Virus record (IMG/VR): IMGVR_UViG_3300045953_000067
From: an uncultured virus (IMG/VR IMGVR_UViG_3300045953_000067)
Taxonomy: Duplodnaviria; Heunggongvirae; Uroviricota; Caudoviricetes
DNA: 20,000 nucleotides
Strand: one strand, 5' to 3'
The notes under the pieces are model-generated. The model was not told the origin of the DNA. It ran no database searches and saw only the letters and a program-made list of their open reading frames with translations. The translations under genes and the position numbers were made by a program. Positions 1-4,367 of the stretch are shown here, one piece after another; within the stretch, counting starts at the first letter, position 1, and every line of letters begins with the position of its first letter.

Positions 1-963
1 GCCGTCCTCGACGTCGCGGCCGTAGGTCAGGCCGGCGGACTTCGCGGCTTCGCGGACGCTCGCCCGGATCGACGTGACCGGCTCGCCGCGGTAGGTCACG
101 ACCCACGGACCCCGCTGTTCGTCTCGAGCGGCTTTCAGGATCGTCCGGAGCGCCGGCACGATCGGGATCACGAGCGGCGCTCCGTGACGATCCTGTTCCT
201 TATGGTCGGCGACCGTGATGAACCGGAGGCCGGCGTCGAGGTCGCGGTCCCATCGAAGGGCGAGGACGTTCGCGAGGCGCAACTTCGGGGCGAGACTCGC
301 GATCGACATCGCAAGCTGCGCGTGGAGCGGGGCCTCCCGGAGCCAGCGACGGAGCTCGGCGGGCGTGACCGTGACGGTGCGGCCCTTCGTGCGCGGCCGC
401 TCGAGGTCGGCGAAGGGGTTCGTCTGGACGCCGGTCTGTTTCACGTACTGCGGGAGCTTCGCGACCCGATACATGCGAGACAAGACGGACAGATAGTGCT
501 TTTTCGTCTGGTTCCCGATCGGGCGGTTTCCGACGCGGGTCCGCCGGGCGTCCATCCAGGCTTCGAACTTCAGGATCCAGGACGGATCCCGGATCGGGTC
601 GGCGAGTGTCAGGTCGTGGTACGGCTCGCCCTCGACGGGCGGGTTCTCGGCGTTCGGTGGGGGCTTCTCGCCCCAGAACCGGAGGACGACGCGGAGCAAC
701 TCCTCGACGCGGTCGATCCGGCGGACGCGGCCCTTCTGTTTCAGGTGTCGGAGGTAGATCGTCGACCAATCCGTGAAGCTCGGCGCGTGCTCCGGGAGGA
801 CGTCGAGCCCGCCGGCGAGCCGGGAGATCCGGCGTTGCTCGGTCGCCTCCCACTCCTTCGCGTCGACCTCGGTCCGCTGTCCCGTGTTCCCTTGGTACCG
901 CTGGCCGAGGTGATAGAACCGGTAGCGGTAGGTCGCACGGTCGCCGGAGCGCCAGACGGTCAT
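1..963 (-). CDS. int: Tyrosine recombinase/phage integrase, 3' end beyond the window
   Basis: Missing from the ORF track because it is open at the edge. Manual translation from ATG 963 (ATGA overlap with the upstream stop) gives MTVWRSGDRATYRYRFYHLGQRYQGNTG... (arm-binding-like N-terminus), ...NQTKKHYLSVLSRMY...TNPFADLERP (core-binding), APKLRLANVLALRW (box I Arg), ...ADHK...PLVIPI. 321 codons with no stop; HxxR and the catalytic Tyr would lie outside the window. Confidence 0.9.
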   Translation of the reverse strand, partial: MTVWRSGDRATYRYRFYHLGQRYQGNTGQRTEVDAKEWEATEQRRISRLAGGLDVLPEHAPSFTDWSTIYLRHLKQKGRVRRIDRVEELLRVVLRFWGEKPPPNAENPPVEGEPYHDLTLADPIRDPSWILKFEAWMDARRTRVGNRPIGNQTKKHYLSVLSRMYRVAKLPQYVKQTGVQTNPFADLERPRTKGRTVTVTPAELRRWLREAPLHAQLAMSIASLAPKLRLANVLALRWDRDLDAGLRFITVADHKEQDRHGAPLVIPIVPALRTILKAARDEQRGPWVVTYRGEPVTSIRASVREAAKSAGLTYGRDVEDG

Positions 964-1193
964 CCGCGGCCGAAACTCGCGAGGGCGGCCATCAGGAAAA
1001 ACGCGATCGCGCCGATCGCGAGTAGGGCGGGGATCGACGCCAGTGTCCACTTGAAGATGAAACTGACCATCGACCCGAAGGGCATGTCGAGGTCGACGAC
1101 GACGACCCGCTGAGCGCCGGCCGTCCTGAGCGCGGCGCTCTGGTCGGCGAGGAGATCGCGGCCGCTCTTTTGCACGGTGTCTATTCCTGTCAT
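960..1193 (-). CDS. Small membrane protein (77 aa)
   Basis: Hydrophobic C-terminal half (VSFIFKWTLASIPALLAIGAIAFFLMAALA); ATGA overlaps at both ends; GGAGGAGG RBS upstream. Confidence 0.8.
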   Translation of the reverse strand: MTGIDTVQKSGRDLLADQSAALRTAGAQRVVVVDLDMPFGSMVSFIFKWTLASIPALLAIGAIAFFLMAALASFGRG

Positions 1194-1420
1194 CCGTCGC
1201 CTCCTCCTGGTGGTGACGCGAGCCGCCTCCGGATCGCGCCGTCGATCATGACTTCGAACACGCGCGCCGCGCGCGGGTCCAAGCGTTCAAGCTGCGCGGC
1301 CTTCGCCGCCAGCACGGAAGGCGCCGAGAGTTCCGCGCGTAGCATCTCGAACTTGCCGGCTGGGAGCTCGGCGAGTCTCCTGCTCGCCTTCGGGTTGGAG
1401 TACACGAGCCGCAGTGTCAT
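1190..1420 (-). CDS. Hypothetical protein (76 aa), paralog of the nested ORF 1804-2100
   Basis: GGAGG RBS upstream; ATGA coupling to the next gene; shares LRLVxSxP and LxxKxxx[LI]xxLxPxxxRxxExxxD with 1804-2100. Confidence 0.75.
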   Translation of the reverse strand: MTLRLVYSNPKASRRLAELPAGKFEMLRAELSAPSVLAAKAAQLERLDPRAARVFEVMIDGAIRRRLASPPGGGDG

Positions 1421-1524
1421 TCATCGGTGCCTCCGCGCCGCGCCTACGATCGCGCAGCAGAAGAGCATCGGCGAACGGACTGACGGACTAGGTCAACAAC
1501 AACCCATAGCGTGAGACGCTGCGG

Positions 1525-1544
1525 TGCTACCGCAACCGGTAGCA
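1525..1544. repeat. Perfect 8-bp inverted repeat TGCTACCG-CAAC-CGGTAGCA
   Basis: Read directly; lies in the gap between 1557-1880 and 1190-1420. Confidence 0.6.
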
Positions 1545-1556
1545 TGGTCGCGCGTG

Positions 1557-1880
1557 TCATCGTTTCCGACGGCGACGCTTGACGGCGGCGCCCATCATGT
1601 CGCCGACGTCGAGCGACCAGTCGCAGACCCATTTCTTGTCGGGCTCCTCCGGTTGCGCGGCGACGATCCCGACGAGGGCGCATCCGGCGTAATACTCATC
1701 GAGGCCTATGTCCAGCGTCGCCGGCACCGACGGCGCGCGGGGGTTGATGAACAGCGTGCGGAGCGCGGCGAGCCGACGCGCGCGCTCCCACCCGGACATG
1801 GGCTTACGTTCGGCGGCGCCACGGGCCGCCACGCGGCGTCGAGCGGTACCAGGCGTGCGGGCCTTTCTCGGCGGCTTCAT
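1557..1880 (-). CDS. Hypothetical phage protein (107 aa)
   Basis: ATGA-coupled to the repressor stop; LDEYYAGCALVGIVA...GDMM resembles the common small phage 'RDYFAaxAlxGllA...ADAM' motif. Confidence 0.7.
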   Translation of the reverse strand: MKPPRKARTPGTARRRVAARGAAERKPMSGWERARRLAALRTLFINPRAPSVPATLDIGLDEYYAGCALVGIVAAQPEEPDKKWVCDWSLDVGDMMGAAVKRRRRKR

Positions 1881-2100
1881 CGCGGCCCCGCCTTCCGCTT
1901 GGGATGCCCAGGCTGCTGTCCGCGATCCTTTCGATGGCTCGCATCCTCTCCGGAATCAGGAGTGCGATCTCTTGGAGCTTGTCGCCCAAAGACCTGGTCG
2001 GCCTCGTCGGCGAAGTGGTCGAGGGCGTCCTTGACGGTGTTGGCAAATCCTCTGAGGTCGTGGCTAAAGGCTGCGAGTGTACGAGCCGGAGTCTCTGCAC
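1804..2100 (-). CDS. Out-of-frame gene (98 aa) nested in the repressor 3' end
   Basis: GTG start with GGGAGGGG RBS 6 nt upstream; gapless motif match to 1190-1420. Confidence 0.65.
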   Translation of the reverse strand: MQRLRLVHSQPLATTSEDLPTPSRTPSTTSPTRPTRSLGDKLQEIALLIPERMRAIERIADSSLGIPSGRRGRDEAAEKGPHAWYRSTPRGGPWRRRT

Positions 2101-2428
2101 CGTTGGCCCCTCCCGTGGTTCGGTCCTGTAGATAAGTCGGAGGGGTATCTTTTACCTCATCTGTGGCGTTTTTGCTGGAAATTTTGCCACGCCACAACCT
2201 GTCGTAGTCGGCGTCCTCACCGGCCACAAGTTCTTCGATCCGGCATGGGATGCCCTTGGCAAACATTAGGAGCGTGTCCAGGCGCACGGTCCTGTTCCGT
2301 CCGTGCTCCCAGTCGCTCAGTTGCTGCGCTGAAATATTCAGGTGTCTGGCGAAATCCGCTGGCTTGGTGTGGCCGGCGGCGATCCGCAGCCGTTCGATGT
2401 TCTTCCCGATCTGCTCTCCTGGGCGCAT
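1877..2428 (-). CDS. CI-like Xre/HTH_3 repressor (183 aa), no S24 peptidase domain
   Basis: IGKNIERLRIAAG...ADFARHLNISAQQLSDWEHGRNRTVRLDTLLMFAKGIPCRIEEL is a typical Xre HTH; divergent from cro. Start moved from the ORF track (2947) to ATG 2428, just downstream of a promoter. Confidence 0.88.
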   Translation of the reverse strand: MRPGEQIGKNIERLRIAAGHTKPADFARHLNISAQQLSDWEHGRNRTVRLDTLLMFAKGIPCRIEELVAGEDADYDRLWRGKISSKNATDEVKDTPPTYLQDRTTGGANGAETPARTLAAFSHDLRGFANTVKDALDHFADEADQVFGRQAPRDRTPDSGEDASHRKDRGQQPGHPKRKAGPR

Positions 2429-2438
2429 TCGAGCCGTC

Positions 2439-2467
2439 ACTATATCGGACCGAATAGCTACGCGCAA
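2439..2467 (-). promoter_or_regulatory. Leftward (repressor) promoter TTGCGC-N17-TATAGT
   Basis: -35 at 2467-2462 and -10 at 2444-2439; ATG follows 10 nt after the -10, implying a near-leaderless mRNA. Confidence 0.65.
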
Positions 2468-2576
2468 ACGCGTAAGGTCTTGATGCATCGCGACTTCGGT
2501 CGCAACCGAAGTACCCGCTGAAACTTTCGGCTTGACACGTATACGGTTACAGCCGTAGTATTCGCGTTGTTCCGTA
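2459..2576. promoter_or_regulatory. Five 16-bp operator-like sites, consensus TWCG-N8-CGWA
   Basis: 2459-2474 TACGCGCAAACGCGTA; 2495-2510 TTCGGTCGCAACCGAA; 2526-2541 TTCGGCTTGACACGTA; 2542-2557 TACGGTTACAGCCGTA; 2561-2576 TTCGCGTTGTTCCGTA. Confidence 0.75.
2532..2561 (+). promoter_or_regulatory. Rightward (lytic) promoter TTGACA-N18-TAGTAT
   Basis: Perfect -35 at 2532-2537 and -10 at 2556-2561, upstream of the cro ATG at 2576. Confidence 0.7.
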
Positions 2577-2830
2577 TGACGGCCAAGCAGATCAAAGCCC
2601 TCCGCAGCATCCCTGTTGGCGAGACCGGCAATCGCCTCGCTGACGCGTTCCAGATCAGCGGTCTTCCACAGATGGCCTGCGTCAGGAGGACCAGGTTCAC
2701 GGCGCAGTACGTCAGCGACGTAAAGAACGGGCGCTTCCGGGACATCTCTGTCGAGAACGCGCGGGAGTTCGCGTCGTTCTTCGGCTGTCAGATTGAGGAC
2801 TTGTTCCCGGCGCGTGAGGCGGTCGCCTGA
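2576..2830 (+). CDS. Cro-like Xre HTH regulator (84 aa)
   Basis: NRLADAF...TAQYVSDVKNGRFRDISVENAREFASFFGCQIEDLF HTH pattern; divergent from the repressor. Confidence 0.85.
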   Translation: MTAKQIKALRSIPVGETGNRLADAFQISGLPQMACVRRTRFTAQYVSDVKNGRFRDISVENAREFASFFGCQIEDLFPAREAVA

Positions 2831-2888
2831 TGTCGTGTTCATCATGGCGTCGAGTGTCGCCGGTATTCGGGATGGAAGGAAGTCCACG

Positions 2889-3245
2889 ATGAGGACTGCG
2901 CTCCTGTTCATGTGCGCGTTCGTGATCGTCCAGGTGGATCCCGACATCGTGTGGCGCGGCGCGCAACGGTGGCGCGCGGCGATCTATCGGGCGCTCTGGT
3001 CGATCGAAAAGCTCGCCATTCACTGCGGCGTCGACAAGTCGCAGCTCCGACGAGAGATCGACGAGGGCAGGCTCCCGATGAAGCGGATCGAGCAATTCCC
3101 TCCAGACGTTCGCGGCTGGCATTCGGTGCTGACGCTCGAAGAAGTCGGCGTGCCGGACGTGCTCCTTCGTGCGGAACCCGTGATCAAGATGGCGAAGATG
3201 ACGCTCGCTCCGATCAACCCGGAAGAGAAGAAGAGGCTCGCATGA
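2889..3245 (+). CDS. CII-position putative regulator (118 aa)
   Basis: GGAAGGA RBS before ATG 2889; SIEKLAIHCGVDKSQLRREI is HTH-like; follows cro. Confidence 0.6.
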   Translation: MRTALLFMCAFVIVQVDPDIVWRGAQRWRAAIYRALWSIEKLAIHCGVDKSQLRREIDEGRLPMKRIEQFPPDVRGWHSVLTLEEVGVPDVLLRAEPVIKMAKMTLAPINPEEKKRLA

Positions 3246-4048: not shown

Positions 4049-4176
4049 TGCGCGAACTGATCGACGTGCTGCTCGTGCTCGGCGCGCTCGTGGCCGTCGT
4101 CATTCTCGGGTGGGCCGTGATCGTCTGGGCGGCCTGGTGTCTCGCGAAAGCGTTCACGCGGAGGGATGAGGAATGA
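4048..4176 (+). CDS. Small membrane protein (42 aa)
   Basis: TGATG coupling; long hydrophobic run. Confidence 0.6.
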   Translation: MRELIDVLLVLGALVAVVILGWAVIVWAAWCLAKAFTRRDEE

Positions 4177-4367
4177 GCATCAAGGATCGTGGGTTTGCGT
4201 CGATGGCCCCTGAGAAGGTGCGCCGGATCTCGTCAATGGGCGGGAAGGCGGCGCACGTCAAGGGCACCGCGCACGAGTGGACGAGCGCGGAGGCGCGGGA
4301 GATCGGGCGTAAGGGCGGGCTGGCGTCGGCCCGCGCGAAGGCGCGGAAGCTGGCGAAGGCGTCGTGA
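4173..4367 (+). CDS. KGG-repeat (YciG/Con-10-like) stress-induced protein
   Basis: RGFASMAPEKVRRISSMGGKAAH...HEWTSAEAREIGRKGG. Confidence 0.85.
   Translation: MSIKDRGFASMAPEKVRRISSMGGKAAHVKGTAHEWTSAEAREIGRKGGLASARAKARKLAKAS

Follow-up and report, generated by a model that had tools for sequence, protein, structure and literature searches.

Does the 3′ end of a phage repressor gene also encode a second protein in another reading frame? The question is raised by a 20,000-nucleotide (nt) stretch of DNA, hereafter the window, from an uncultured member of the Caudoviricetes (IMG/VR record IMGVR_UViG_3300045953_000067), in which a 98-codon open reading frame (ORF) lies in the +1 frame at the 3′ end of a cI-like repressor gene, and a free-standing ORF for a possibly related small protein lies further downstream at 1190..1420 (Table 1). 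A first reading made from the letters of the window alone (the sequence-only reading) had proposed that the nested ORF is a genuine gene, overprinted inside the repressor, and that this small family could act as co-repressors, antirepressors or induction sensors in an unusual lysis-lysogeny switch. Here, a family match, a conserved arrangement across phages and selection on both frames together argue for a dual-coding module rather than a shadow ORF. We conclude, with a probability of about 0.78 for the reading taken as a whole, that a conserved dual-coding module makes up the 3′ third of the repressor gene and encodes, besides the end of the repressor, a small protein for which we favour an accessory role in the switch or in lysogen physiology.

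A nested reading frame with its own start signals

The nested ORF has the last 74 repressor codons (2100→1877) in common with the repressor gene, and the Shine-Dalgarno (SD)-like sequence GGGAGGGG ahead of its GTG codon is itself repressor coding DNA; the nesting and the place of this site, which the sequence-only reading had reported, are seen directly in the sequence. Residues 1-64 of the nested product (2100→1909) make up the family domain described below, and residues 65-98, a tail peculiar to this lineage, extend into the 5′ end of the next ORF, which encodes 107 amino acids (aa). The one close homolog of the window repressor (P0001) is P0002, a protein of 55% identity on the viral contig L001, which carries a nested ORF with the same GTG start and the same length of 98 codons. 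Despite 53 differences in 297 nt between the two phages, GGGAGGGG and the GTG are identical, and by these signals the nested gene would have an independent start made up of an SD site and a start codon.

Codon composition changes within the same segment. The G+C content of third codon positions (GC3) switches frame at about 2060-2100, the repressor frame being the richest upstream, and from 2060 to 1880 the nested frame has a GC3 of 0.75-0.80 versus 0.53-0.62. Gene callers skip the nested ORF both in the window and in L001, and it is absent among 5.8 billion clustered proteins.

The nested ORF and the free-standing ORF belong to one family

The sequence-only reading had aligned the nested product with that of ORF 1190..1420. 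Taken pairwise, the similarity is thin: BLASTP recovered only the segment LRLVHSQP/LRLVYSNP (7/11 identities, E 0.012), hhalign of the two window/L001 pairs (nested versus paralog) returned a probability of 20.7%, and blastn and tblastx of the paralog region against the repressor region found no DNA trace of a duplication except a 21-nt stretch at LRLV. Homology is instead settled by the family profile. When a profile made from the two free-standing copies was run against 1.84 billion representatives, it retrieved nine proteins, comprising seven distant small proteins (68-104 aa), L001's own paralog (P0003) and one false match, the 342-aa P0009, which was dropped from all profiles for its low-complexity repeats; a 14-sequence profile retrieved 62 proteins, all of them 65-105 aa long and free of Pfam domains. 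A hidden Markov model (HMM) of the seven distant members, none of them from these phages, scored the nested ORF at 15.4 bits (E 4e-4) and the L001 nested copy at 13.6 bits, with the next unrelated segment at 7.2 bits among 432 six-frame segments, and the alignment to the nested ORF is colinear, covering positions 2-64 of 69 and starting at the GTG. With a 69-member HMM, the nested ORF and the L001 nested copy scored 16.4 and 17.0 bits, the next best segment scored 6.6 bits, and of 5000 shuffles made, 4984 were scored and none reached the real score. The same two models gave 61.7 and 69.2 bits for the paralog.

The alignment proposed in the sequence-only reading is thus real at the level of the family and weak at the level of the pair: profiles built without the nested ORF match it end to end. 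By this profile evidence, the nested ORF and 1190..1420 are members of one unannotated family. The paralog behaves as a maintained gene: between the window and L001, the comparison used here for close rates, it keeps the shared motifs under clear purifying selection, with proportions of synonymous (pS) and nonsynonymous (pN) differences of 0.54 and 0.16, respectively.

Members of the family begin with the motif M-[ST]-Q-L-R-L-[VA]-[YWF]-S and end in a helical hairpin (..AAVIERLVDD..) with the consensus L..K..RL....P.AAVIE[RK]LVDD.L; the linker that joins the two varies and is rich in S, T, K and P. An [LI][RK][LI] core lies near the N-terminus in 63 of 77 aligned members and is preceded by Q in 54 of those 63. 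The nested product begins M-Q-R-L-R-L-V-H-S and the paralog M-T-L-R-L-V-Y-S, so that the core is present in both and the Q is not in its usual place, and the nested hairpin motif P-ERMRA-IER-IAD-SSL agrees with the family pattern P...IE[RK]..D..L. A further conserved peptide occurs at the C-terminus, where 13 of the 77 members have the ending EGRRP, and EGRKL or EGRHP is found in several others; the window copies have no such ending.

Seven database entries that begin at an upstream start (P0004, P0005, P0011, P0034, P0040, P0048 and P0064) carry conserved N-terminal extensions, for example VT.SVTVVRD.R...KE.P-M. The extensions fit conserved repressor coding DNA upstream of the small gene, the KE pair corresponding to an AAGGAG ribosome site, which suggests that these members may be nested as well.

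The nested arrangement recurs in nine lineages

Nine distinct lineages carry the arrangement, namely the window, L001, L005, L006, L015, L018, L019, L021 (identical to L022) and L023, seven of which were found by searching a viral collection with distant small-protein members. Contigs L007-L009 were rejected as relatives, their similarity consisting of 23-residue chance matches in unrelated genes. The small ORF occupies the +1 frame at the 3′ end of an XRE-type helix-turn-helix (HTH) repressor ORF in all nine; its start lies 176-224 nt from the repressor stop (176-191 nt in the seven besides the window and L001), all eight repressor ORFs from outside the window have Pfam HTH matches, and a divergent cro-like gene adjoins wherever inspected (L001, L005, L006 and L015). 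The start codon is ATG in five lineages and GTG in four. Stops in the nested frame and loss of its ribosome-binding site in homologs had been named by the sequence-only reading as the outcome that would speak against a gene; the frame is open in 9/9 lineages, and an SD-like motif stands 5-9 nt upstream of the small ORF in eight, the exception being L019. Across the overlap, the small frame has the higher GC3 in every lineage, with values of 0.65-0.79 for it and 0.41-0.60 for the repressor frame.

Free-standing copies were seen only in the window and L001, where the order is repressor, nested 98-codon GTG ORF, 105-aa ORF, free-standing paralog and membrane ORF; the L005 and L006 records carry the nested copy alone. 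On this distribution, the nested position is the normal state of the family, and the free-standing copy is a derived duplicate of the window/L001 lineage. The existence of a free-standing paralog therefore stands as first described, with the roles recast: the nested copy represents the usual state (9/9), and the free-standing copy is the derived and more canonical one (69 versus 16 bits).

Close relatives of the window proved few. Scans of genome contigs with the repressor and with the 107-aa protein returned none of its lineage, a metagenome scan returned only a 12-residue match (L002), and GenBank phages gave no relative either by blastn or by tblastn of two canonical family members. The window stretch is present in 13 soil-metagenome runs, and 14% of its sequence words recur in one soil metatranscriptome run (X10). 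Four soil-metagenome runs (X6-X9) each contain contigs of the window type (window 1100-2600) side by side with contigs of the L001 type, so that two related phages differing in their repressor HTH domains live alongside each other; the reads of these four runs yielded only contigs that either equalled the window or belonged to the L001 type, and no new substitutions. The only hint of a host is a family small protein found in a metagenome-assembled genome of Acidobacteriota.

Selection acts on both reading frames

In the family domain of the nested ORF, compared between the window and L001, NG86 pN/pS is 0.42 for the small frame and 1.15 for the repressor frame; among five lineages, 9 of 10 pairs likewise give the lower value for the small frame. 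As a null model, the window repressor protein was held fixed and its synonymous codons were drawn 5000 times from the window's own usage. The +1 frame stayed open in 2884 draws (58%), so openness alone means little; an open frame with a start codon and an SD-like site arose in 61 draws, and the family score was reached in none (15.4 bits for the real sequence, maximum 9.9), in agreement with the earlier judgement that an accidental shadow ORF was unlikely.

The repressor frame carries a signature of its own. In the seven lineages with canonical nested genes, the repressor stop falls at the homologous place, where the Val-Asp codons of the small gene's LVD motif, GT[T GA], supply the repressor TGA. 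This Val is encoded by GTT in 7/7 lineages, although GTT is rare at these loci, where the long ORFs use it for 13.3% of Val (73 of 548 codons), which argues that the repressor frame is selected too. The frame-0 tails also share a helical pattern (..EL..L...VA.Y...A..V.., five lineages) and a basic end (HRK[TA]G).

The distribution of substitutions over codon positions points the same way. In the two gapless close pairs, substitutions at positions 1/2/3 of the small frame number 10/12/15 (window-L001) and 12/20/25 (L006-L018), compared with a pattern of 29:13:67 in two neighbouring single genes; the fewest changes fall on the site class that is nonsynonymous in both frames, so that neither single-frame model fits. 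Close comparison is confined to these two pairs, L001 being the sole close relative of the window for rates, and within that compass the evidence indicates purifying selection on both frames. The overlap halves of L006-L018 gave no clear signal of a division of labour between them, and where the first ~25 codons of the 107-aa ORF overlap the nested tail, neither frame is clearly favoured.

Which frame came first is addressed indirectly. The free-standing copy shows that the small protein can exist by itself, and in it the repressor-equivalent frame meets a stop after 45 codons; the high GC3 of the small frame marks this frame as the one fitted to the codon usage of the genome. These signs suggest that it is the repressor tail that was overprinted, which may then be the younger of the two. 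The description of the small gene as overprinted inside the repressor therefore holds for the nesting; the direction had been presumed, and GC3 favours the small frame in 9/9 lineages.

Predicted architecture of the small protein

AlphaFold2 (AF2) modelling of the paralog with the 77-sequence alignment gave two helices (residues 36-47 and 49-68) in a block with predicted local distance difference test (pLDDT) values of 84-96, preceded by 35 low-confidence N-terminal residues, and the model of the nested copy has the hairpin at 38-48 and 50-64, plus a low-confidence tail of 34 residues. The monomer models have no strand, and among the 77 members the residues that precede helix 1 vary and are of low complexity. 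A ribbon-helix-helix (Arc/MetJ) fold, an idea drawn from four sequences, is not supported by these monomer models and was weakened when the supposed strand proved to be variable linker in 62 more members; a likeness to P450 helices (E ~0.05) is attributable to chance. As modelled, the combination of a terminal short linear motif, a disordered linker and a helical module is that of a protein-binding adaptor. No membrane segment is seen, and little in the predicted protein suggests an enzyme or a classical DNA-binding fold.

At the N-terminus, the consensus QLRL[VA][YWF] is similar to a hexameric beta-clamp-binding motif, whose pattern is given as QLxLxL in one report (PMC4564189). This lead is weakened by the 14 of 77 members that have no core and by both window copies, RLRLVH and TLRLVY, which have no Q.

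The repressor, the switch region and the neighbouring genes

The window has a G+C content of ~66% and resembles the left arm of a temperate phage or prophage; its features are collected in Table 1. The repressor matches Cro/CI-type HTH families of Pfam (HTH_26, E 4.2e-8; HTH_3, E 4e-6) through residues ~11-68 (about 2398→2225), with nothing recognisable by Pfam after the HTH, and also matches PHROG families of transcriptional repressors and regulators. Its maximal ORF (1877..2947, minus strand, 356 codons) runs antisense across the cro-like gene and most probably owes its first ~150-170 codons to the shadow of that gene; the real start is 2428, as chosen by the gene caller, or 2488. Pfam detected no S24 domain in the window repressor or in the eight homologous ORFs, where it found HTH families only, and neither S24 nor ImmA/M78 domains in the repressor and the 33 other window ORFs scanned, a set that does not take in every small ORF. 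The absence of an autocleavage domain and of a visible ImmA/IrrE protease, asserted by the sequence-only reading, is borne out for these ORFs and leaves the repressor with its induction partner missing.

The two ends of the repressor gene have diverged to very different degrees. Against L001, the HTH part (2215-2428) has pS 0.69 and pN 0.52, compared with pS 0.19-0.29 in the C-terminal part (1880-2214), and the HTH part is likewise far more diverged than the C-terminal part between L006 and L018. The specificity domain of the repressor appears to be swapped or fast-evolving atop a conserved dual-coding module.

Between the repressor and the cro-like gene, an inverted repeat, ACTTCGGT-4-ACCGAAGT at 2493-2512, is a candidate operator, and the overlapping promoter-like and palindromic sequences at 2528..2561 form a candidate operator/promoter of the cro-like gene, judged by consensus. 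No terminator-like site was seen on the minus strand from 2428 to 1021, and an Rfam scan of 900-3000 found no RNA family.

Table 1. Positions of the repressor locus features and neighbouring elements in the window.
Feature	Position	Strand	Remarks
Tyrosine-integrase-like gene	1..1050	-	Runs off the left end of the window
Hydrophobic ORF	960..1193	-	77 aa; between paralog and integrase; hydrophobic by translation, GC3 0.83
Free-standing paralog	1190..1420	-	76 aa; small-protein family
107-aa ORF	1557..1880	-	Its ATG overlaps the repressor TGA (ATGA)
Nested small ORF	1804..2100	-	GTG 2100, TAA 1806-1804; 98 aa
cI-like repressor	1877..2428	-	183 aa as called; alternative ATG 2488
SD-like GGGAGGGG	2107..2114	-	GGAGG 8 nt before GTG; in repressor T-G-G-A codons
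Imperfect palindrome	2528-2555	+	28 nt; overlaps promoter-like site, over its -35
Promoter-like TTGACA-18-TAGTAT	2532-2561	+	Consensus match only
Divergent cro-like HTH gene	2567..2830	+	87 aa; HTH_26 E 2.1e-4 (at cut-off), GC3 0.83

Downstream of the repressor, the 107-aa ORF has 78% aa identity to the 105-aa ORF of L001, and its C-terminal part (1805-1560) is under strong purifying selection in that comparison (pS 0.55, pN 0.10); searches of Pfam, PHROG and NCBIfam gave no match for it. The product of 960..1193 is probably a membrane protein, to judge from its translation, and has a counterpart at the same position in L001 and L005. The integrase-like assignment of 1050→1 is based on weak matches below the curated Pfam cut-offs (Phage_int_SAM_5, E 4.7e-4; Phage_integrase, E 1e-3). 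On the other side of the switch, the C-terminus of the cro-like product (..FFGC.IEDLFPAREAVA) is homologous in L001, L006 and L015, and to its right follow an excisionase-like HTH_17 gene and then genes for recombination (AAA_24, NinB) and replication initiation. A 64-aa ORF within this early region (4173-4367, plus strand) carries a KGG stress-protein repeat (PF10685, E 7e-11).

The gene that follows the repressor/small-gene module in other lineages varies, encoding a Cys-rich membrane protein in L006 (3719-4237), a lipoprotein-like secreted protein in L015 (2686-3381) and a small membrane protein in L005 (3757-4047), as expected for accessory genes expressed in lysogeny.

Discussion

Taking these observations together, genuine dual coding in this family is highly probable, and the window's own nested copy is probably still functional. 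We envisage that a single mRNA of the lysogenic repressor operon would be read in frame 0 to give the repressor C-terminal region, probably an amphipathic helical segment with a basic tail, and from its own SD site and GTG 2100 in frame +1 to give a separate small protein, which lysogens would then translate together with the repressor. In the window phage, a second and more canonical copy would be made from the same operon (1420→1190). The small protein would work by protein contacts, its N-terminal motif serving as a docking peptide and its hairpin as the bundle-forming part, and we favour for it an accessory role, either in the lysis-lysogeny switch or in the physiology of the lysogen.

Several findings weigh against this interpretation. 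The window nested copy is the weakest member of the family, at 16 bits versus 57-86 bits for the six nested copies of other lineages that were scored; it has no motif Q, reads I-A-D in place of L-V-D, and has lost the usual stop, gaining 34 residues with a pN/pS of 0.83. The evidence for constraint is also uneven. The contrast between the two frames, which the sequence-only reading had suggested measuring, is present in pN/pS, and the synonymous drop in the overlap is not significant (Fisher p 0.26 and 0.60) when the reference is the adjoining single-coding part of the repressor, 2215-2102, which has a pS of 0.29 versus 0.54-0.55 downstream; this low local divergence may in part reflect a more recent exchange of the segment. 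When the alignment is guided by the repressor, conservation is equal in the two frames (0.227 versus 0.230, the small frame being higher in 19 of 36 pairs). The lineages are few, and seven of them were ascertained through the small protein; they establish that family members are nested and leave aside how many related repressors have such a gene. As to function, the small protein gave no match in Pfam, PHROG, NCBIfam, a PDB sequence profile, Foldseek against PDB or the ESM Atlas.

The weakness of the window copy is best accommodated by the alternative that the nested gene is real elsewhere and that the window/L001 copy is a relic, drifting since the free-standing duplicate took over, with its frame kept open only by repressor constraints and high G+C. 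Such decay would explain a nested copy at 16-17 bits beside a free-standing one at 69, the joint loss of the canonical repressor stop and of the small gene's usual end, and a tail with a pN/pS of 0.83, and chance alone leaves the frame open in 58% of recodings. Decay is harder to reconcile with the start signals preserved unchanged in L001, with a family domain in which the small frame is the more constrained, and with a family score that no recoding attains. The replacements in the motif and helices between the window and L001 are, moreover, conservative (L>I, I>L, I>F, R>K and S>G), and low-complexity linkers of S, T and P also occur in other members (P0074 and P0059). We therefore regard a relic as unlikely, though it is the alternative that survives best.

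Far less probable is a shadow ORF in the strict sense, in which the +1 frame is translated in no lineage and is conserved only through selection for the repressor tail within G+C-rich DNA. The silence of gene callers in the window and L001, the many long shadow ORFs in the window and the equal conservation of the frames in the repressor-guided alignment would all be expected of it. It offers no account of free-standing copies that have the same motifs and evolve as ordinary genes, of 62 family proteins called as genes in databases, of the start codons with SD sites in 8/9 lineages and the GC3 bias in 9/9, or of the recoding null. Least credible of all is a single product, in which a +1 frameshift creates an HTH-hairpin fusion or the frame-0 tail is untranslated junk beyond a hidden end: the small ORF does start at the end of the repressor linker in all lineages and the frame-0 tail does end in basic, low-complexity sequence, but each lineage has its own start codon (with an SD-like site in 8/9), the family occurs free-standing at 65-105 aa with no longer genuine form in a profile search over all lengths, a rare codon holds the frame-0 stop in 7/7 lineages, and the frame-0 tail keeps a helical pattern common to five.

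The repressors concerned have no known induction domain, which makes the nested gene a concrete candidate for the missing partner. That its product acts on the switch itself, binding the repressor or an induction factor, is a tentative proposal to which we give somewhat less than even odds. A more specific version, framed by analogy and in our view improbable, would make the nested protein a built-in sensor or adaptor of the switch, its hairpin packing on the C-terminal helix of the repressor, a helix written in the same DNA, and its QLRLxΦ motif docking to a host hub such as the beta clamp. Were this so, repressor activity would be coupled to the replication state of the host, allowing SOS-independent induction by phages with neither S24 nor ImmA, and, through dual coding, neither the sensor nor the repressor could be inherited or expressed apart from the other.

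The switch between lysogeny and killing probably has a hidden extra part in these phages, and if the second product acts on it, the annotation of the immunity regions is wrong by one gene in a whole group of uncultured soil phages. The module also offers a natural case for the study of codon sharing, with nine lineages and both frames apparently selected, and it comes with an internal control in the free-standing duplicate, whose repressor-equivalent frame has gained a stop. A practical warning follows as well, as gene callers systematically miss nested genes of this kind.

Same-strand nested genes are textbook features of phage lysis cassettes. In the Rz/Rz1 spanin genes of lambdoid phages, which are widely conserved, the inner gene has its own start in the +1 frame of the same strand, and both products are needed for lysis, the Rz1 lipoprotein binding Rz. 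The module described here shares with Rz/Rz1 the same-strand +1 nesting, the separate start and an arrangement conserved across phages; it differs in that the host gene is the master repressor and in that the small gene extends 28-73 nt past the stop of its host. In gene order it recalls the ImmR-ImmA-Int modules of ICEBs1-like elements, in which the antirepressor protease ImmA is encoded between repressor and integrase: here too an HTH repressor with no cleavage domain is followed by a small accessory gene and then an integrase on the same strand. Unlike ImmR-ImmA and lambda CI, however, the scanned ORFs contain neither M78/ImmA nor S24, and the accessory protein is of ~70 aa and shares the DNA of the repressor.

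Overlapping genes on a lysogenic transcript have been described in the Pseudomonas phage Fc02, where the alternate-frame ORFs olg1 and olg2 lie on the repressor transcript and one of them encodes a 7.9-kDa superinfection-exclusion protein (PMC9936078). That pair lies upstream of the repressor, shares no codons with it and has no sequence relation to the present family. For the N-terminal motif, the closest parallel lies in the Mu transcription factors Mor and MuC, which are reported to use N-terminal beta-clamp-binding motifs (PMC12867686). These too are small phage regulatory proteins with a clamp-binding-like peptide at the extreme N-terminus; they have no homology to the family, whose likeness to clamp-binding proteins is by motif only. 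A full-text literature search found no description of a gene nested in a phage master repressor, and olg1/olg2 of Fc02, which precede the repressor gene, came nearest among the published cases that we found, with Rz/Rz1 as the architectural analogue.

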